The notes under the pieces are model-generated. The model did no database searches. It was not told the DNA's origin and was given only the letters and a program-made list of their open reading frames with translations. Positions 237 to 22,345 of a stretch of DNA of 24,000 bases are shown piece after piece; the first letter of the stretch is position 1; each line of letters starts with the position of its first letter. The stretch spans positions 1 to 24,000 of the forward strand of contig CAZGXM010000002.1 of NCBI GenBank assembly GCA_964529795.1, given 5' to 3'. Origin of the DNA: an uncultured Thermoanaerobacteraceae bacterium. Its GTDB lineage: Bacteria > Bacillota > JADQBR01. The translations under genes and the position numbers were made by a program.

Positions 237-375
237 CAAGATGATTTAGCGGATAAGACAGACATAGTAAAATGGTACCTGCCGCTTTCATAAATTTATG
301 GATACAATTATCCCAATGACCTTAAAAGTGAAAAACAAAAATATAGTATAATAACATGAAGGAGGTGCTCGTGAA

Positions 376-1965
376 GTGGAAACTTGGCGTTTGCTTGATA
401 CGGGGATAAAAACTGCAGCAGAAAATATGGCATTAGATGAAGTGGTCTTAACCGCTAAAGGGAAGGGCTGGACACCTAATACGCTTAGGTTTCTGCAGTT
501 TAGTCCTCCTTGTGTCTTGGTTGGCTATCATCAAAGTATTGAGCAGGAGATTCGCATTGATTACTGCAGGGACAATGGTATAGATATCAATCGTCGTATT
601 ACCGGCGGCGGGGGATTGTACTGGGATGAAACCCAGCTTGGCTGGGAGATATTTGCTGATAAGAATCATCCTGCCATTCCCAATAAAATAGAGGAGTTGT
701 ATGAAAAGCTCAGCAATGCAGTAATTTTTGCATTGGGTGAGTTTGGCCTAAAGGCCAAGTTTAGGTACAGGAATGACATTGAAATAAACCACCGGAAAAT
801 TTCAGGTACCGGGGGGACTGAATTAGATAATGCGTTTTTATTTCAAGGGACTCTCCTGGTGGATTTTGATGTGGATACAATGTTAAGGGCATTAAGGATA
901 CCTACGGAAAAACTAAAGGATAAGGAAATAGAGTCGGTAAAAGAGCGGGTTACCTGTTTGAAATGGGAATTGGGCTATACCCCGGCCATTGAGGATATTA
1001 AGACGGCTATCGTAAAAGGATTCTCCCACGAGTTGGGAGTTAAATTCACTGAAGGGGTCTTATCCCAGAAAGAGGAAAAGCTGTTAGTTGAGACTATACC
1101 GAAATTTAAATCAGTAAAATGGGTGGATAATATACGCCGGTCGCCGCTGCAGCGTCAGGAGTTAAAGTCTCTTTATAAAAATGAAGGCGGCCTCATCAGG
1201 ACATCTGTCATTTTAGACGGCTATACAGAAAGAATCCTGACTATTTTAATTACCGGTGATTTTTTTGTTTACCCGAAAAACGCCATCTTTGATTTGGAAA
1301 ATTTACTGCGAGACGTCCCGGCTGATTTTAATCAAATACTCAGCATAATTAGTAGGTTTTTTGGAGAAAAACAGGTCAAGATTCCGGGCCTTACCCCGAA
1401 AGATTTTACCATTGCCATATGGGATGCTGTTAAAAAGAAGGATTTACTGGACCACGGAATTGGCTTAAAGGATATTAACTCAGTTTATATGGTGGGGGGA
1501 GATTTTGAGCAGGTGGAAAACGCCACGGTGCTGCTTCTTCCCTACTGCGCCAAAAAAGTGAGCTGTAAATATCGCTTTTGGGAAGGATGTGTACAGTGCG
1601 GAGGTTGTACCATCGGGCCGGCTTTTAAACTGGCGCTGGATTATGGGCTGCAGCCCGTTACCATTCAGAATTATGAAATGCTGGAAGAAACCCTTAAGGA
1701 CCTTCAGAAAAGGGGAGTTCAGTCCTTTGTCGGGACGTGCTGTGAAGCGTTTTATGCCAAACATAAGGATGATTTTGAACGTATCGGCCTGCCGGGGGTG
1801 CTGGTGGATGTAAAAAACTCTACCTGTTACGACCTGGGCAAGGAAAAAGAAGCCAAAGAAGGCATGTTTGAAAATCAGACCGAGTTAAAGTTGGACTTAC
1901 TTAAACAAATTGTTGATTTAAAAGCAAGCCGGGTAAATAGTTCCATGGTTGGTGGTAATCAATGA
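376..1965 (+). CDS. lplA: Lipoate-protein ligase (LplA catalytic and C-terminal domains) fused to a C-terminal Cys-rich DUF116-like domain
   Basis: GTG start 10 nt after GGAGG (361-365). Residues 1-250 show ligase motifs: ENMALDE, RRITGGGGLYWD and the catalytic Lys in HRKISGTGG (K141). Residues 255-350 resemble the LplA C-terminal domain (ITGDFFVYP). Residues 384-490 carry LLLPYCAKKVSC...CVQCGGC...GTCCE...NSTC, the DUF116 pattern as I remember it. Confidence 0.85.
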   Translation: METWRLLDTGIKTAAENMALDEVVLTAKGKGWTPNTLRFLQFSPPCVLVGYHQSIEQEIRIDYCRDNGIDINRRITGGGGLYWDETQLGWEIFADKNHPAIPNKIEELYEKLSNAVIFALGEFGLKAKFRYRNDIEINHRKISGTGGTELDNAFLFQGTLLVDFDVDTMLRALRIPTEKLKDKEIESVKERVTCLKWELGYTPAIEDIKTAIVKGFSHELGVKFTEGVLSQKEEKLLVETIPKFKSVKWVDNIRRSPLQRQELKSLYKNEGGLIRTSVILDGYTERILTILITGDFFVYPKNAIFDLENLLRDVPADFNQILSIISRFFGEKQVKIPGLTPKDFTIAIWDAVKKKDLLDHGIGLKDINSVYMVGGDFEQVENATVLLLPYCAKKVSCKYRFWEGCVQCGGCTIGPAFKLALDYGLQPVTIQNYEMLEETLKDLQKRGVQSFVGTCCEAFYAKHKDDFERIGLPGVLVDVKNSTCYDLGKEKEAKEGMFENQTELKLDLLKQIVDLKASRVNSSMVGGNQ

Positions 1966-3035
1966 GAGCGGATATTAGAGAGTACGATGCGGTTATCATC
2001 GGTGCAGGTCCTGCAGGGGCGGCAGCGGCGAAAGAGTTGGCGGGCAGCGGGTTTTCCGCGGCTCTTTTGGAGAAAAGAAGACAAATCGGCATACCGGTCA
2101 GATGTGCCGAGTTTGTCCCCCGTTTTTTAAACAGTTACTATGATATACCGCCTTTTGTCATTGCCCAACAGATTAACCATATGGAGACACATTTGCCGGA
2201 TAAAAGCAAAGAAGTGACCCCTGCTCCCGGTTATGTTGTGCACCGGGTGCTGTTTGATAAATATTTGGTTGCCCAGGCGGTTGAAGCGGGCGCCGTGCTG
2301 TATTTAGGCACTAAAGCGGTGAAAATCCATAATAATGAAGTGGTTGCTGTGCAAGGTGACAGTAACATAGTCTTTCATACAAAAATAATTGTCGGCGCCG
2401 ATGGCCCCAATTCTATGCTTAGAAAGGTTGTGGGGATTAAGAAACCGCCCATGGCCCGTGCTCTCCAGGCTGAGGTAGTACTGGAAAGGGAGCAATCAAC
2501 TACTCAAATAGTGTTTCACCCCAGCATTTACGGGGGTTATGCCTGGTTTTTCCCCAAAGGCAAGACTGCCAATGTAGGTTTGGGCATGATTAACCAGGGA
2601 GGAGACTCGGTGAAAAAAGCCTGGCAGAGGTTATTTAGCCTTTTTAATATTGAGTCCACTATCGGTTATACAGGCGGGCAAGTTCCTGTTGGCGGTACGG
2701 TAAAACAGCTGGTAAAAGATAATATGCTGTTGGCAGGTGACGCCGCAGGACTGACTCATCCTATTACCGGTGCCGGTATCAGTAATGCGGTGATTAGCGG
2801 TAAGATGGCCGGTGCAGCGGCTGCCGATGCCCTGTCTTCGGGAGATTATACTTACCTAAGCAATTATGAGGAAGATATTGAAGACCTTTTCGGTAATAGT
2901 TTAAGGCTAGCCGCGGCAAATAGAAAATACCAGGAAGAAAATTGGAGTGATGATCCGGAAGTCCTCAGCGGTGTGATTAAAAAGACATGGGTTGCCTTTC
3001 AAGAATATGGTGCAAATAAACAGGGGGGAGTTTAA
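1962..3035 (+). CDS. lipT: FAD-dependent oxidoreductase, geranylgeranyl reductase family (LipT-like electron donor of the LipS pathway)
   Basis: ATGA start/stop overlap with the ligase gene (1962-1965). It has the N-terminal dinucleotide fold YDAVIIGAGPAGAAAAKELA and the GDAAG motif (LLAGDAAGLTHPITGAGI). It lies between a lipoate ligase and two radical SAM genes. Confidence 0.8.
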   Translation: MRADIREYDAVIIGAGPAGAAAAKELAGSGFSAALLEKRRQIGIPVRCAEFVPRFLNSYYDIPPFVIAQQINHMETHLPDKSKEVTPAPGYVVHRVLFDKYLVAQAVEAGAVLYLGTKAVKIHNNEVVAVQGDSNIVFHTKIIVGADGPNSMLRKVVGIKKPPMARALQAEVVLEREQSTTQIVFHPSIYGGYAWFFPKGKTANVGLGMINQGGDSVKKAWQRLFSLFNIESTIGYTGGQVPVGGTVKQLVKDNMLLAGDAAGLTHPITGAGISNAVISGKMAGAAAADALSSGDYTYLSNYEEDIEDLFGNSLRLAAANRKYQEENWSDDPEVLSGVIKKTWVAFQEYGANKQGGV

Positions 3036-3036
3036 A

Positions 3037-4095
3037 TTGAATAATTTAGCAGCCAAAACAACGGATAATCAAAATATGGAAAGTCCTGATTATGCCCAAA
3101 CCAGTCTGGCAGCAAGTCTGACTTTGGGATTCGAGAGGGGATTGTTTCACCGCAACGCGACTCTAAAAGGTCTTAATCTCTTGGTAACCTACAATAACAA
3201 GTGTGCCGGGAACTGCAGTTACTGCGGCTTATCGAGAACCAGGGACCTCACTGAAAGTGAAACATTTATTCGTGTCAGTTGGCCTACTTATGCTGTGGAT
3301 GACATGATTCATGCTGTAAAGGAAAAGCAGCATGAACTGCAGCGTGTATGTGTAGGCATGATAACCCATAAAAAAGCTGTGGCGGACAGCATTGCCATCA
3401 TCAAACGATTTAAAAAAGAGACCGATTTATTAATTAGTGCGCTGGTCTCTCCCACTGTCATGAAAAGGGGGGACCTAAGCCGGATAAAAGAAGCGGGAGC
3501 TGATATGTGCGGAATTGCCGTTGATGCGGCTACTGAAGAATTATTTGATAAATTTCGGGGCCGGTCGGTGTCCGGTCCCCATCGCTGGTCAGCGTTCTGG
3601 GATGCCGTAGAAGAGGCGGCGGCCGTGTTTGGGCGGTATAAAGCAGGAGTACATTTAATTGTAGGATTAGGGGAAACCGAAAAGGAAATGGTAGATACGA
3701 TACAAAGGGCCCATGACTTAGGAGCCATAACACATTTATTCAGCTTTTTTCCTGAAGCGGGGAGTAAAATGGAGAACTGGCCCCAACCTGATTTGGGCCA
3801 CTATCGGCGTATCCAATTGGCCAGATATGTAATTAATAATAACTTAGGTACAGCAGCGGAGATACAGTTTAACGGCGACGGGCAGTTAACTGATTTCGGG
3901 CAGGATTTGGATAAGTTTTTTGCGGACGGGGAAGCATTTATGACTTCAGGCTGCGCAGGAAAAGACGATAAAGTAGCCTGCAACCGACCTTTCGGTAACG
4001 AGCGTCCTTCAAAGCCTATTAGAAACTTTCCCTTTATGCCAACGCCTCAGGATTTAAAATTAATAAGAAAACAATTATGGCAGGGTCTAAAATGA
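3037..4095 (+). CDS. Radical SAM protein, biotin-synthase-like, LipS1/LipS2-type lipoyl synthase component
   Basis: CxxxCxxC motif CAGNCSYC. I prefer a TTG start at 3037, 6 nt after GGGGGAG and 1 nt after the upstream stop. The track ORF starts at 2992 and would overlap lipT by 44 nt; ATG 3007 is another option. I cannot tell LipS1 from LipS2 by eye. Confidence 0.75.
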   Translation: MNNLAAKTTDNQNMESPDYAQTSLAASLTLGFERGLFHRNATLKGLNLLVTYNNKCAGNCSYCGLSRTRDLTESETFIRVSWPTYAVDDMIHAVKEKQHELQRVCVGMITHKKAVADSIAIIKRFKKETDLLISALVSPTVMKRGDLSRIKEAGADMCGIAVDAATEELFDKFRGRSVSGPHRWSAFWDAVEEAAAVFGRYKAGVHLIVGLGETEKEMVDTIQRAHDLGAITHLFSFFPEAGSKMENWPQPDLGHYRRIQLARYVINNNLGTAAEIQFNGDGQLTDFGQDLDKFFADGEAFMTSGCAGKDDKVACNRPFGNERPSKPIRNFPFMPTPQDLKLIRKQLWQGLK

Positions 4096-5078
4096 GTGCA
4101 ACTGAGAGGGCGGTTACACGAGATATAATAAAAGATGCCTATCAAAATTCTTTGAATCACCTGCTGGAAGAGGCGTGGCAGGTCAGGACGGAATACCATG
4201 ATAATACCTTGGCTTTTGCGGCACCCAGTCCCAAGTTTTATGAAACTGATGATTATAAAAATAACAGGACGGCATTTATTAATGTTTCCGTTACAGGGAC
4301 TAAATGTGCACTGCGCTGCGAACATTGTAAGGGTGAACTGTTAAAATCCATGCATTCAGCAACTGATTCTAAAGAGTTAGTCAGTTTAGGTGAAAGATTC
4401 CTTAAAAAAGGCTGCCAAGGTGTCTTGATCAGCGGGGGAGCCGATGCTAACGGTGAAGTCCCGCTTAAAAACATGGCGGCAGGTATAAAACAACTAAAGC
4501 AGCTGGGTTTGAAAGTAATCGTGCATACAGGGTTGATTACAGAGGAAACGGCACTTATCTTAAAAGAATGTGGAGTGGATCAGGTTTTAACTGATGTAAT
4601 TGGGGATAGGCAGACTGCTAAAGAAGTGTATCATTTGGACAAAACCCCGGAACAGTTTGGAAATGCTTTGAAGATAATGGGTGACGCCGGTTTAAATATT
4701 GCACCTCACATTGTTATTGGACTGGATTATGGCCGTATTGTGGGTGAATTGGAGGCGTTATACCAGGTGATAAGGGCCGATGCCCCGGCAATTGTCTTTG
4801 TAATATTAAATCCATTACCCGATACCCCCATGTTTGGTGTAAAGAGTGCTCCGGCGGATAAAATTGGGAAAATAATTGCTTTAGCCCGTATCTTCAGTCC
4901 CAAAGCAAAAATAATGTTGGGATGTGCCAAACCGCCTAAAGATAAGATAGCCATTGAAACATTGGCACTGAATGCCGGTGTTAACGCAATCGCCTATCCT
5001 GCAGAAGAGACTGTATCTTTAGCCAAAGATAAGGGCTTGAAAACATTTTTTAGTCCTTTATGCTGCAGCTTGCTTTAA
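4092..5078 (+). CDS. Radical SAM protein, second LipS1/LipS2-type lipoyl synthase component
   Basis: CxxxCxxC motif CALRCEHC, followed by VLISGG. ATG 4092 forms an ATGA overlap with the upstream stop (4093-4095). ATG 4077 from the track is the alternative start. Confidence 0.75.
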   Translation: MSATERAVTRDIIKDAYQNSLNHLLEEAWQVRTEYHDNTLAFAAPSPKFYETDDYKNNRTAFINVSVTGTKCALRCEHCKGELLKSMHSATDSKELVSLGERFLKKGCQGVLISGGADANGEVPLKNMAAGIKQLKQLGLKVIVHTGLITEETALILKECGVDQVLTDVIGDRQTAKEVYHLDKTPEQFGNALKIMGDAGLNIAPHIVIGLDYGRIVGELEALYQVIRADAPAIVFVILNPLPDTPMFGVKSAPADKIGKIIALARIFSPKAKIMLGCAKPPKDKIAIETLALNAGVNAIAYPAEETVSLAKDKGLKTFFSPLCCSLL

Positions 5079-5749
5079 AACTTATGGCGCTGCTTCTTCT
5101 CAGGGCCAATGGGGTTATATGTGATGTTGACCCGCTGTTTGTAATTGACTTGAAAAACCCCGAAAATCCAAATATTTTGGGCAAGTTAAAAATCCCCGGT
5201 TATTCGGATTACCTCCATCCTTATGACAACAATCACATTATTGGTTTCGGAAAGGATACCGTCGAGGCTAAGGAGGGGGACTTTGCCTGGTATCAAGGGC
5301 TGAAAATTGCCATCTTTGATGTTATCGATGTAAACAACCCCAAGGAATTGTTTAAAGAAATTATCGGTGACCGCGGTACCGATTCTGAAATTCTGCGTAA
5401 TCACAAGGCACTGTTATTTGACAGGGAAAAAGGACTTTTAAGTTTTCCTGTTACGGTCATGAGGGTAAAAGAAAAAGGCCCGAATAATGCTTTCCGGTAT
5501 GGAGAGTTTTCTTTCCAGGGTGCCTACGTGTACCATGTTGACCTGGATAACGGTTTTTCCCTGAAAAAGAAAATTACCCATCTCACTGACGAGGATTATC
5601 TTAAGGCGGGCAGCTACTGGCACGCTCCGGGCAAAAGTATTGAAAGAATTCTTTATATCGGTGATAGACTCTACACCCTGTCAAAGGGTAAAATAAAAGT
5701 GTATGACCTGAATACGCTGGATGAAATCAAGAGCATTTCACTTCCATGA
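5060..5749 (+). pseudogene. 5'-truncated beta-propeller domain protein (only the C-terminal ~215 aa of a protein that is normally several hundred aa)
   Basis: VDPLFVIDLKNPENPNILGKLKIPGYSDYLHPYDNNHIIGFGKDT matches the C-terminal part of the secreted Beta_propel family. The frame opens only at 5054, just after an in-frame TAG. There is no signal peptide or N-terminal region, and the 5' end overlaps the 3' end of the preceding radical SAM gene. Confidence 0.6.
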
Positions 5750-7926: not shown

Positions 7927-7982
7927 TAAGAAGGAAAAAGTGTTTAAATATAGATAGATGACACGTGAGAAGGAGCAACTCT

Positions 7983-16958: not shown

Positions 16959-17078
16959 CTCTTATCGAGAGTGGTCGAGGGACAGGCCCGATGAAACCAC
17001 GGCAACCTGCAAGGCTTGCAAGGTGCCAATTCCTGTCAGATGAGAGCAGGACTATACTCCTCATCTGAGGAGTTTTTT
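16959..17078 (+). promoter_or_regulatory. SAM-I (S-box) riboswitch with antiterminator and terminator
   Basis: P1 is CTCTTATC (16959-16966) paired with GATGAGAG (17039-17046). Conserved core: GAGAGTGGTCGAGGGACAGGCCCGATGAAACCACGGCAACC...GGTGCCAATTCC. Antiterminator: CAGATGAG (17037-17044) with CTCATCTG (17060-17067). Terminator: ACTCCTC (17056-17062) with GAGGAGT (17067-17073), followed by T-run 17073-17078 (TTTTTT). Confidence 0.9.
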
Positions 17079-17113: not shown

Positions 17114-18253
17114 ATGAGATTCGAAACCAGATGTGTGCAGTCGGGCGTGTGCAAGTCAGAAACAACGGGGAGTATCAGTACGCCTATTTACCAGACGGCG
17201 ACCTTCAGGCACCCCGGTTTGGGGAAGAGTACCGGTTTTGATTACTCCCGGACGGGTAATCCTACCCGGCAGGTGCTGGAAAAGGCCATAGCCGGGCTGG
17301 AAGGGGGCAGTTGCGGTTTGGCCTTTTCCTCGGGCATGGCGGCGATCAGCGCTGTGCTGCACTTATTTAAGGCCGGCGACCATCTGATTGTTTCCGATGA
17401 TTTATACGGTGGTACTTATCGTTTGCTGGAACAGGTGTACAATAACTTTGGGCTGGAGGTCAGTTATGTGGATACCAGCGATTTAACACGGGTTGAGCGG
17501 GCGATCACTGCCAGTACCAGGGCTATTTTAATTGAAACACCCACAAATCCTTTAATGAAAGTTACTGATATCAGTGCCGTATCAAATTTGGCCCGACAAC
17601 ATCAATTGCTGCTGATTGTGGACAATACGTTTATGACTCCTTACTGGCAGCAGCCGCTGACACTGGGGGCGGATATAGCGGTCCACAGCGCCACGAAATA
17701 CCTGGGTGGGCACAATGACCTGGTGGCGGGCCTGCTGGTGGTGAAAAATAAGGACCTGGGAGAAAAATTATATTTTATCCAAAATTCCATTGGGGCGATA
17801 CTGGGGCCGCAGGACTCCTGGCTACTGCTGCGGGGGCTGAAGACCCTGGCGGTACGTCTGGAGAAAGGACAGCAAAATGCCCTGAATATTGCCCGGTGGT
17901 TAAAAGCGCACTCGCAGGTAACCAGGGTATATTACCCAGGCTTGACGGACCATCCCGGTTATCAGATAATGAAAAAGAACAGTACCGGCTTTGGGACAAT
18001 GATCTCCTTTGAAGTATCACAGCCGTTTTTGGTGGAGCAGGTTTTGAGCAAACTACAGATGATTGCCTTTGCGGAAAGTTTGGGCGGTGTGGAAACCCTG
18101 ATTACCTTTCCCGCAGAACAAACTCATGCGGATATACCCGAAGAAGTGCGGGAAAGTTTGGGCATAAATAACCGGCTGTTAAGGCTTTCCGTGGGCATTG
18201 AACACGTGGACGACTTAATCAGTGATTTTGCCCAGGCATTAACTCCAGACTAG
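17114..18253 (+). CDS. metI: Cys/Met-metabolism PLP enzyme, cystathionine gamma-synthase-like (MetI-like)
   Basis: RBS GGGGGGAAAG precedes the start. It is collinear with B. subtilis MetI as I recall it: GFDYSRTGNPTR, AFSSGMAAI, DNTFMTPY, the PLP Lys in HSATKYLGGHND, and AESLGGVE. Confidence 0.75.
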   Translation: MRFETRCVQSGVCKSETTGSISTPIYQTATFRHPGLGKSTGFDYSRTGNPTRQVLEKAIAGLEGGSCGLAFSSGMAAISAVLHLFKAGDHLIVSDDLYGGTYRLLEQVYNNFGLEVSYVDTSDLTRVERAITASTRAILIETPTNPLMKVTDISAVSNLARQHQLLLIVDNTFMTPYWQQPLTLGADIAVHSATKYLGGHNDLVAGLLVVKNKDLGEKLYFIQNSIGAILGPQDSWLLLRGLKTLAVRLEKGQQNALNIARWLKAHSQVTRVYYPGLTDHPGYQIMKKNSTGFGTMISFEVSQPFLVEQVLSKLQMIAFAESLGGVETLITFPAEQTHADIPEEVRESLGINNRLLRLSVGIEHVDDLISDFAQALTPD

Positions 18254-18310
18254 CTTTCAATCATCATCTGAACTTCAAATTTCTAAATTTTAGCACGGGG
18301 AGGAAAGCTA

Positions 18311-19456
18311 ATGAAATTCGGCACCAGGGTTTTGCATACCGGCACGGAAGTTGACTCGGCCACCGGTGCGGTAAGCGTACCCATCTATCATTCTTCCACT
18401 TACGATCAGAGAGGTGATGTGAAGAAAGAGTTTGACTATTCCCGCTCTGGCAATCCCACCAGAAAAGCGGTGGAAGGGGCGCTTGCAGTGCTGGAAGATG
18501 GTGCCCGGGGTTTTACTTTCGCCTCGGGTATGGCAGCCATCAGTACAGTGCTGGCGTTATTTTCCGCGGGCGACCATCTGCTGATAACAAGAGATGTTTA
18601 CGGCGGCACTTACCGGGTACTGACCAAGGTATTTTCCCGGTTTGGCATTGAATTTGACTTTATCGATACTATTGATCTGAGCAATATCCGTAAGCAGGTC
18701 AGGCCGAACACTAGGGGATTGTACCTGGAGTCACCTTCCAACCCGTTGTTGAAAATAACTGATATCAAGGGAGCTTGTGAGATTGCCAAAGAGCACGGGC
18801 TAATAACCATGGCAGATAATACCTTTATGACACCGTATTTTCAAAATCCGCTGCAACTGGGTGCGGATATCGTCATTCACAGTGCCACCAAATTTTTAGG
18901 TGGTCACAGTGACCTGCTGGCGGGGGTGGTTGTAGCCAGTGATAAGAAATTATGTCAGGAGATAGCGCAACTGCAAAATGCGATCGGAGCGGTTCTTGAC
19001 CCTCATTCTTGCTGGCTGCTGATGCGGGGAATAAAAACACTGAAAGTACGTATGGAGCAGCACCAGCAGGGGGCTTTGAAAATTGCCGAGTGGTTAAAGG
19101 ACCACCCCTTGATTGACAGAGTTTACTATCCAGGTCTGCCGGAGCACCCGGGACATGAGACGGTGAAACAGCAGTGCCGGGGTTTTGGCGGTGTTTTATC
19201 GTTTGTTACCAAGGACGAGACGGTTACCAAGAGGTTAATGCAGGAAGTCAAAGTTCCCGTTGTGGCTGTGAGCTTGGGCGCGGTGGAAAGCATTCTTTCC
19301 TATCCCGCTGCCATGTCCCATGCGGCCATACCTTTAGAAGAGAGGCTGCAGTTAGGGATTTCGGATAACCTGTTACGGTTGTCTGTGGGCCTGGAAGAAC
19401 CGGAAGATTTGATTGCGGACCTGGAACAGGTTTTGGGCCAAAATAACGGGTGCTAA
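18311..19456 (+). CDS. metC: Cys/Met-metabolism PLP enzyme, cystathionine beta-lyase-like (MetC-like), paralog of the upstream gene
   Basis: RBS GGGGAGGAAAG precedes the start. It has the same family motifs (FDYSRSGNPTR, HSATKFLGGHSD, AVSLGAVES). It is the second gene of the S-box operon, as in the B. subtilis metIC arrangement. Confidence 0.7.
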   Translation: MKFGTRVLHTGTEVDSATGAVSVPIYHSSTYDQRGDVKKEFDYSRSGNPTRKAVEGALAVLEDGARGFTFASGMAAISTVLALFSAGDHLLITRDVYGGTYRVLTKVFSRFGIEFDFIDTIDLSNIRKQVRPNTRGLYLESPSNPLLKITDIKGACEIAKEHGLITMADNTFMTPYFQNPLQLGADIVIHSATKFLGGHSDLLAGVVVASDKKLCQEIAQLQNAIGAVLDPHSCWLLMRGIKTLKVRMEQHQQGALKIAEWLKDHPLIDRVYYPGLPEHPGHETVKQQCRGFGGVLSFVTKDETVTKRLMQEVKVPVVAVSLGAVESILSYPAAMSHAAIPLEERLQLGISDNLLRLSVGLEEPEDLIADLEQVLGQNNGC

Positions 19457-21950: not shown

Positions 21951-21980
21951 AGCTTAAAATAGCTTTTATCAAATACCATG

Positions 21981-22228
21981 AACAGGAAAAGTAGACTTGG
22001 TTGGGAACCCAGAGCGAGCCGGGGACGGTGAAAGCCCGGCGGGGAACGCTAGGTTGAAGTTCTCCTGGGAGTTGCAAGCTGAATACCTCAAGGTTAGTAG
22101 GCGAGACGGGACTTCCGCCGTTACAAGGAAGAGGGTATAAGGACTTGCTCCCGTACCTCAGACTGAAACTCTCCCTGTAGGGTGGTTTTGCGAGTAACTC
22201 TCGTCCCTAAGACGGGAGTTTTTGTTTT
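21981..22228 (+). promoter_or_regulatory. T-box riboswitch (complete: Stem I, F-box, Stem III, antiterminator/terminator), probable Phe (UUC) specifier
   Basis: Stem I has AGTA (21990-21993), the AG bulge AGAGCGA (22011-22017) and the distal loop GGTGAAAG. The 3' side of the specifier loop is GAAGTTC, with TTC at 22060-22062. F-box CCGTTA is at 22117-22122. T-box: AGGGTGGTTTTGCGAG (22179-22194). Terminator: ACTCTCGTC (22197-22205) with GACGGGAGT (22211-22219), then TTTTGTTTT. Confidence 0.8.
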
Positions 22229-22239
22229 AGTTGGGAAAG

Positions 22240-22345
22240 TCCCGTACCTGTAAGGAGTGGGTCGTTAACTGACCAAACAGGGTGGTACCGCGGAAGCGCC
22301 ACAGATTCGTCCCTGGTGATGAAACTGTGGCGCTATTAATTTTTA
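22240..22345 (+). promoter_or_regulatory. Second T-box antiterminator/terminator module with no recognisable Stem I of its own
   Basis: Canonical T-box AAACAGGGTGGTACCGCGG (22275-22293), with CGTCCCT (22308-22314) closing the antiterminator. Terminator: GCGCCACAG (22296-22304) with CTGTGGCGC (22325-22333), then TATTAATTTTT. TCCCGTACCT (22240-22249) repeats 22149-22158. Confidence 0.65.

Follow-up and report, generated by a model that had tools for sequence, protein, structure and literature searches.

What pathway is encoded by the four tightly packed genes at 376-5078 in a 24,000-nucleotide stretch of DNA from an uncultured Thermoanaerobacteraceae bacterium (contig CAZGXM010000002.1, positions 1 to 24,000; the whole of this stretch is termed the window below), and what might the additional eight-cysteine domain on the first gene product contribute? 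The genes encode a lipoate:protein ligase fused to a DUF116 domain, a LipT-like flavoprotein of the geranylgeranyl reductase (GGR) family, and two radical S-adenosylmethionine (SAM) proteins assigned to LipS2 and LipS1. They are very likely to form a genuine operon, with the identity and overall function of a LipS1/LipS2-type lipoate assembly system; the arrangement is not a chance one, since the same four-gene set is kept in ~70 loci of other species. With good confidence, the operon as a whole can be read as a self-contained Lpl(AB)-LipS1/LipS2-LipT lipoate cassette with a redox supply provided by DUF116 and LipT.

Operon structure and conservation

The operon, the domains of its first gene product and its upstream boundary are as follows.

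376-1965, plus strand: lpl(AB)-DUF116 (gene 1), lipoate:protein ligase with DUF116, 529 residues; GTG start, TGA stop
415-1023, plus strand: LplA-type catalytic domain of gene 1, residues 14-216, with Lys141 in RKISGTGG
1174-1428, plus strand: LplB-like accessory domain of gene 1, residues 267-351; matched by NF053749 (53 bits) and by 3R07 chain C
1465-1935, plus strand: DUF116 (PF01976) domain of gene 1, residues ~364-520; placed by Pfam, alignments and a structure model
1962-3035, plus strand: lipT-like (gene 2), 357-residue flavin adenine dinucleotide (FAD) protein of the geranylgeranyl reductase family; ATG start, TAA at 3033-3035
3037-4095, plus strand: lipS2 (gene 3), 352-residue radical SAM protein; TTG start behind a GGGGGAG site
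4092-5078, plus strand: lipS1 (gene 4), 328-residue radical SAM protein with a BATS-like C-terminus; ATG start in ATGA
361-365, plus strand: Shine-Dalgarno sequence GGAGG, 10 nucleotides ahead of the gene 1 GTG
124-152, no strand assigned: GC-rich hairpin, terminator-like if read on the minus strand; marks the upstream boundary

The open reading frame list and the letters themselves show four co-directional, tightly coupled frames on the plus strand. Stop and start overlap in ATGA at exactly 1962-1965 (genes 1 and 2) and 4092-4095 (genes 3 and 4); genes 2 and 3 are spaced by the single base 3036. The initial annotation of this DNA, made from the sequence alone, had described this layout with its stop/start overlaps. 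Each of its coordinates was found again in the letters, and the CAGNCSYC and CALRCEHC motifs that it reported are both present in the translations. The window shows 375 nucleotides upstream of the operon; in a six-frame reading, positions 1-375 hold no long open reading frame and have stops in every frame, and this upstream region contains no riboswitch or other Rfam element. Two exact-match metagenome scans for sequence upstream of the window returned nothing.

With each GTDB species represented by one genome, a scan gave 80 loci with a full-length Lpl-DUF116 fusion, at 47-64% identity to gene 1. The fusion therefore occurs in 80 or more anaerobic species, both bacterial and archaeal, which belong to Bacillota, Chloroflexota (Anaerolineae), Thermodesulfobacteriota/Desulfobacterales/Syntrophia, Nitrospinota, Thermoplasmata, Methanobacteriota, Bathyarchaeia and Thorarchaeota. 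All four genes are adjacent in ~70 of the 80 loci (Bacillota, Chloroflexota, Thermodesulfobacteriota, Thermoplasmata, Bathyarchaeia and Thorarchaeota), and homologues of LipS2 and LipS1 adjoin the fusion at every locus with enough flank. In 75 of the 80, a gene for a GGR-family flavoprotein is found no more than 4 kb from the fusion; it is mostly directly downstream, and divergent in archaea. Rare longer fusions also exist: Lpl-DUF116-LipT (P0151), and Lpl-DUF116 joined to a CdhB-like CO_dh domain (P0183, P0240 and P0237).

Candidatus Formimonas warabiya (Peptococcaceae) is among the best relatives of gene 1 (64% identity), and its operon contains all four genes, identically ordered. There, the module is flanked by a purine/pyrimidine catabolism cluster unrelated to the flanks in the window. 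The earlier placement of the host as a Clostridia-like anaerobe is consistent with this match, and with a SAM riboswitch and a T-box leader in the window; both of these elements are typical of Firmicutes.

The ligase and its DUF116 domain

In a profile search, gene 1 matches the LplA-B_cat family at 171 bits. Lys141 is a lysine of the catalytic type and aligns in register with the lysines of the solved ligases 1VQZ and 2ARS. The LplB model NF053749 reaches its 53 bits against a cut-off of 65. Every full-length ligase equivalog model also scores gene 1 under its cut-off, so the predicted ligase is divergent. The initial annotation had called gene 1 a lipoate-protein ligase; the ligase domains agree with this call, but the protein is not a plain ligase, and its DUF116 domain had been overlooked.

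The length of gene 1 (529 residues) is accounted for by a C-terminal DUF116 domain of ~165 residues. The Pfam match (PF01976) covers residues 376-486 and scores 43.3 bits against a cut-off of 25. Within the domain there is a CxxCxxC motif (C405xxC408xxC411) and five further cysteines (C391, C397, C455, C456 and C484); all eight are invariant in a 17-sequence alignment. Across 165 full-length homologues, the eight cysteines are 98-100% conserved, compared with 90% for the catalytic lysine of the ligase. The lysine is replaced by Q, E, R, V, L or T in 16 cluster representatives (~10%; P0125, P0129, P0132, P0133, P0152, P0172 and ten others), which keep all eight cysteines and are apparent pseudo-ligase variants. 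Judged by sequence, DUF116 is the most constrained portion of the 529-residue protein, since its cysteines outlast the catalytic lysine.

When the domain was used as a HMMER query against 1.84 billion representative proteins, 191 matches were obtained; the full-length matches are nearly all ~480-570 residues long, with DUF116 at the C-terminus. The gene 1 domain is a specialised branch of the family, divergent from the canonical members, that exists almost only fused to a ligase. It is soluble and C-terminal to the ligase, without the N-terminal pair of transmembrane helices of the canonical stand-alone members.

The domain is modelled by AlphaFold (AF2) as a flavodoxin-like alpha/beta fold of alternating beta-alpha units (mean predicted local distance difference test score 87, predicted template modelling score 0.84), in which all eight cysteines lie in loops directly after beta-strands. 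The Foldseek matches of this model are generic flavodoxin-like or Rossmann 2x2 folds and are weak (template modelling score ~0.3), and searching PDB sequences with the domain gave nothing meaningful. A relationship to the CCG domain of HdrB/LutA, which shares a CC pair and CxxC, was rejected at a profile-profile probability of 0.4% (hhalign).

DUF116/arCOG02078 has been predicted to be a flavodoxin-like electron-transfer domain with a metal-binding CxxCxxC (Makarova et al. 2015, PMC5898192). The same study notes fusions of DUF116 to polyprenyl synthetase in some bacteria, and none to lipoate ligase. This is the sole functional statement found in the literature on DUF116/PF01976, in which no link to lipoate was found. 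DUF116 is not mentioned in the main text or text supplements of PMC10332631, where the LipS1/LipS2 system of bacteria is described; the supplements are also without the terms Formimonas or Peptococcaceae. In the present operon, DUF116 is probably a domain for metal or iron-sulfur (Fe-S) binding and an integral functional part of the pathway.

Twelve of the related loci (L012, L017, L027, L030, L036, L039-L042, L050, L062 and L080) have, a few kb away from the fusion, a gene for a second lipoate ligase, a plain paralogue that lacks DUF116. These paired ligases suggest a division of labour in some genomes.

The LipT-like flavoprotein

Gene 2 passes the GG-red-SF model TIGR02032 with 214 bits (cut-off 158.8), and its closest PDB relative is the GGR of T. 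acidophilum (3OZ2). It retains GxGxxG, Cys48 and YAWFFPx7GxG. The homologue alignment shows that Cys48 and YxWxFPx7GxG are kept across the LipT clade, with Cys48 invariant; together they form the catalytic signature of geranylgeranyl reductases. The pass of TIGR02032 and the coupling of the gene between the ligase and lipS2 sustain the earlier description of gene 2 as a LipT-like FAD protein of this family. The comparisons made here with LipT, sLpl(AB) and the LipS1/LipS2 proteins of Thermococcus kodakarensis were made through NCBIfam models and published residue numbers.

The retained Cys48 and YxWxFPx7GxG, together with the relationship to 3OZ2, could also indicate that LipT is a true GGR-type substrate reductase fed by a ferredoxin-like DUF116, and that the pair, instead of serving the radical SAM clusters, acts on a C=C bond (such as that of an unsaturated C8 acyl precursor) or on some other substrate. 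The canonical DUF116-polyprenyl synthetase fusion (PMC5898192) would fit such a role, as it hints at a general partnership between DUF116 and GGR with electrons passing into the flavoprotein. However, the established octanoate route requires no C=C reduction, and no candidate unsaturated substrate is known. Work with helper plasmids and mutants credits the ligase and LipS1/LipS2 with lipoylation, and LipT has been proposed merely as an electron donor (PMC10332631). A substrate reductase is improbable.

Assignment of LipS2 and LipS1

Gene 3 scores 237 bits with the LipS2 model NF053743 (cut-off 270); the next family reaches 69 bits and BioB 31. Gene 4 scores 204 bits with the LipS1 model NF053742 (cut-off 230) and 55 with BioB. 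The cut-off of the BioB model TIGR00433 is 225, and HydE is represented by weak PDB matches only (E ~1e-3). The initial annotation had assigned the pair to LipS1/LipS2; these are the best models, ahead of BioB, PylB and HydE by 150-170 bits, and neither protein sides with BioB/HydE.

The radical SAM motif of LipS2 is C56x3C60x2C63; C105, C306 and C315 are also invariant in 65 homologues. In LipS1 the motif is C72x3C76x2C79, and C278, C324, C325 (98%) and H206 are also conserved in 62 homologues. The auxiliary-cluster ligands reported for T. kodakarensis are C230, C276, C277 and H159 of LipS1 and C85, C276 and C279 of LipS2 (PMC9585515). The additional cysteines and the histidine of the present proteins match these ligands by position and spacing, as judged without direct alignment. 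The distal cysteine pair of LipS2 is Cx8C here versus Cx2C in T. kodakarensis.

Five further members of the clade score 221-237 bits for LipS2 and 217-233 bits for LipS1, with three of the five reaching the LipS1 cut-off. Since scores throughout the clade are consistently 221-237 bits (LipS2) and 204-233 bits (LipS1), the DUF116-linked LipS1/LipS2 proteins are a distinct subgroup on profile evidence.

The sub-cut-off scores of both proteins and the Cx8C spacing of the clade could also be read to mean that the pair are BioB/HydE-like enzymes for another thiolation and that the cluster modifies a non-lipoyl target; the 24-kb window has no acceptor gene, which would agree with this. The 150-170 bit lead of the LipS1/LipS2 models argues against such a reading, as do the uniform scores of the clade (with LipS1 at the cut-off in several members), the strict linkage to a lipoate ligase, and the common occurrence of GcvH or E2 genes nearby in related loci. 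A different thiolation is very improbable.

Acceptor proteins and other lipoate genes

Of 77 related loci, 28 have GcvH-family genes no further than 10 kb away, often immediately upstream, with the lipoyl-lysine motif (E/Q)(S/T)xK present. Genes for the E2, E1 and E3 components of a 2-oxoacid dehydrogenase occur at the same distance at L015, L044 and L075; the E2 gene at L044 abuts the fusion. In the window, no NCBIfam match to LipA, LipB or LipM was obtained at E <= 0.01 among the proteins scanned, the LipA motifs (Cx4Cx5C and RSSY) did not turn up, and no lipoate-related Pfam family was found in the other open reading frames. The 2-oxoacid oxidoreductase at 9429-12127 is of the thiamine pyrophosphate (TPP)/ferredoxin type.

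These profile and six-frame searches concur with the initial annotation, in which the window lacked a LipA-like gene and an acceptor and the nearby oxidoreductase was of the TPP/ferredoxin type. It had also considered the target of the operon to be open. This is overstated, given the 375-nucleotide upstream view and the GcvH and E2 genes near related loci. The operon is likely to lipoylate a GcvH-family protein whose gene lies elsewhere in the genome.

Ahead of the module, Desulfobacterales and Syntrophia often have a GcvH-family gene, a LUD-Fer4-2xCCG gene and an FAD-linked oxidase gene (examples for this upstream trio are L049:713-2935, L064:651-1220 and L047:6403-7875). The large LUD-Fer4-2xCCG protein is encoded at 28 loci and the FAD-linked oxidase at 10; TusA and DsrE-like genes are added at L036, L041 and L042. 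These gene sets may represent Hdr-like, lipoate-dependent systems in anaerobes.

Proposed mechanism

By homology, the ligase domains would use ATP to activate free octanoate (or lipoate) and would join it to the lipoyl-lysine of an apo-acceptor, which is most likely a GcvH-family protein or E2. LipS2 would then use SAM radical chemistry to insert sulfur into C8 from its own auxiliary [4Fe-4S] cluster, and LipS1 would insert the second sulfur into C6, again by homology. In T. kodakarensis, LipS2 thiolates C8 and LipS1 then thiolates C6; each uses up its auxiliary cluster (PMC9585515). We infer that the eight invariant cysteines of DUF116 hold one or two Fe-S clusters, and that electrons may pass from a reductant to the FAD of LipT, on to the Fe-S centres of DUF116 and finally to LipS1 and LipS2, at their radical SAM clusters. 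The tether to the ligase would put this redox supply at the site where the octanoylated acceptor forms.

Electron supply by DUF116 and LipT is proposed because of the near-obligate LipT neighbourhood, the fusions to LipT and CdhB-like domains, the ferredoxin-type CxxCxxC, the fold and the earlier, independent prediction for the family. The specific role of DUF116 as an electron relay from LipT to LipS1/LipS2 is put forward tentatively, at somewhat less than even confidence.

LipS1 and LipS2 perform ~1-1.5 turnovers with ferredoxin, ferredoxin reductase and NADPH, and their auxiliary clusters are the source of sulfur (PMC9585515); a regeneration factor is therefore needed. DUF116 could be an NfuA/IscU-like carrier of Fe-S clusters or sulfur that rebuilds the sacrificed auxiliary [4Fe-4S] clusters. 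Transferable clusters could sit on the eight invariant cysteines, a tether to the ligase would locate the carrier at its point of use, and DUF116 is kept where the ligase lysine has gone. In contrast, the additional fusions of DUF116 are to LipT and CdhB-like domains (flavin/redox) rather than to a cysteine desulfurase or scaffold. Furthermore, its near-universal neighbour is a flavoprotein, canonical DUF116 proteins keep company with redox enzymes (PMC5898192), and TusA and DsrE-like genes are present in few loci only. A cluster carrier is rather unlikely.

A number of observations weigh against the lipoate cassette with a DUF116-LipT redox supply. Both LipS2 and LipS1 fall under the curated NCBIfam cut-offs, and the six-frame search of the 24-kb window gave no lipoyl-domain or GcvH-like open reading frame (best E >= 0.4). 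Foldseek found nothing in the PDB that resembles the DUF116 model at E < 0.01 (best E = 0.015), and the predicted metal binding by this domain is deduced solely from its cysteines. In addition, the sLpl(AB)-LipS1/LipS2-LipT systems of sulfur oxidisers apparently function without DUF116. The sLpl(AB) of H. denitrificans has ~360 residues, a length deduced from the deletion described in PMC10332631; since this ligase is so short, LipT is not strictly dependent on DUF116.

A broader proposal combines several of these elements. DUF116 would be a dedicated Fe-S partner of GGR-family flavoproteins, LipT-DUF116 would be the physiological reductant of LipS1/LipS2 with a possible part in cluster repair, and a tether to the ligase would bring octanoylation, the delivery of electrons and sulfur insertion together in a single complex; in the lysine-less variants, the ligase fold would persist solely as a docking adaptor for the acyl-acceptor. 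This proposal is speculative, and we regard it as possible rather than probable.

Two questions about LipS1/LipS2 concern the in vivo reductant of the radical SAM clusters and the renewal of the sacrificed auxiliary clusters. The eight-cysteine domain fused to the ligase is a concrete candidate that may bear on both. If its role is as proposed, it would provide the first function for one branch of DUF116, a family spread through many archaea and bacteria. The operon also points to the LipS1/LipS2 pathway in Peptococcaceae-like anaerobes that depend on 2-oxoacid oxidoreductases of the ferredoxin type.

Other features of the window

Immediately downstream, 5060-5749 (plus strand) encodes the C-terminal ~170 residues of Beta_propel (PF09826; profile positions 326-495 of 495), with a 19-nucleotide overlap with the end of lipS1. 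This is probably a gene remnant, and it suggests that the four-gene module was inserted at this site. The sole identical public contig (JGI metagenome 3300023440, 4.7 kb) overlaps the window at ~701-5403 and matches from ~840 on. Its first ~140 bases (L083:1-140, against window 701-840) are wholly unmatched; the mismatch probably arose as an artefact when the end of the contig was assembled.

An hgcAB-like pair is found at 7965-9264 (plus strand); it consists of a 347-residue membrane protein with a corrinoid domain, followed by a gene for an 80-residue 2x[4Fe-4S] ferredoxin. The corrinoid protein has the cap-helix motif NVWCSSGK and scores 163 bits with the NCBIfam HgcA model (cut-off 275). 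It is probably an HgcA paralogue and not a true mercury methylase.

The sole other radical SAM gene in the window besides lipS1 and lipS2 is at 13192-14349 (plus strand); it encodes a radical SAM/SPASM protein that passes the cut-off of TIGR04317, the maturase of a tungsten-cofactor oxidoreductase, with 417 bits. It is preceded by ~1 kb (12128-13191) that is AT-rich, has a negative GC skew and contains short open reading frames only.

The SAM (S-box) riboswitch is at 16959-17046, ahead of two tandem genes (17114-19456) for pyridoxal phosphate (PLP) enzymes of Cys/Met metabolism. The T-box leader at 21969-22317 overlaps the listed GTG start (22282) of the open reading frame for 3-deoxy-D-arabino-heptulosonate 7-phosphate (DAHP) synthase. 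Since the T-box covers 22282, the actual start of DAHP synthase must be further downstream.

Comparison with known systems

In E. coli, LipA receives electrons from flavodoxin and flavodoxin reductase, and its cluster is repaired by NfuA/IscU. The needs of that system are the same: SAM cleavage calls for a low-potential reductant, and the sacrificed auxiliary cluster has to be replaced. The E. coli helpers are general housekeeping proteins encoded elsewhere; in contrast, the candidates here (LipT and DUF116) are dedicated ones, encoded in the operon itself and in part joined to the ligase.

In Thermococcus kodakarensis, LipS1 (TK2109) and LipS2 (TK2248) likewise form a two-enzyme lipoyl synthase, with split LplA/LplB (Neti et al. 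2022, PMC9585515). Judged by spacing, they have the same Cx3Cx2C and three further cysteines each, as well as the LipS1 histidine and C-terminal CC pair. Unlike here, the T. kodakarensis genes are unlinked, and neither LipT nor DUF116 is reported.

Canonical DUF116/arCOG02078/COG1852 proteins (e.g. MMP0162, PMC5898192) share with the gene 1 domain the PF01976 match, the predicted flavodoxin-like fold, CxxCxxC with further cysteines and a predicted role in electron transfer. In contrast to the fused domain, they occur on their own, have two transmembrane helices at the N-terminus and are encoded beside genes for sulfite/nitrite reductase, ArsA-type ATPase or polyprenyl synthetase.

The closest parallels are with sulfur oxidisers. 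In bacteria, sLpl(AB) and LipS1/LipS2 lipoylate LbpA proteins (Tanabe et al. 2023, PMC10332631). The LipS1/LipS2 system occurs in ~0.9% of bacterial genomes, including those of Firmicutes (Sporomusa), and lipT accompanies lipS1/lipS2 in about half of the bacteria that contain them (PMC10332631). As here, the clusters of Thioalkalivibrio sp. K90mix and Hyphomicrobium denitrificans have Lpl(AB), a GGR flavoprotein and two BioB-like radical SAM proteins in one operon; the sulfur-oxidiser clusters are also translationally coupled by start/stop overlaps (PMC10332631). They differ from the present operon in several respects. The ligase here has an extra ~165-residue, eight-cysteine DUF116 domain, the gene order (lpl-lipT-lipS2-lipS1) is different, LipS2 and LipS1 are under the NCBIfam equivalog cut-offs, and there are no sHdr or LbpA genes near the operon, whose host is a strictly anaerobic Peptococcaceae-like Firmicute.

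A LipS1/LipS2 operon in a Clostridia-like anaerobe is not new by itself, since the pathway is already known, including in Firmicutes, and has been reported as widespread in bacteria (PMC10332631). The DUF116 fusion, the sub-threshold LipS1/LipS2 subgroup and the dead-ligase variants together constitute an undescribed variant of this pathway.

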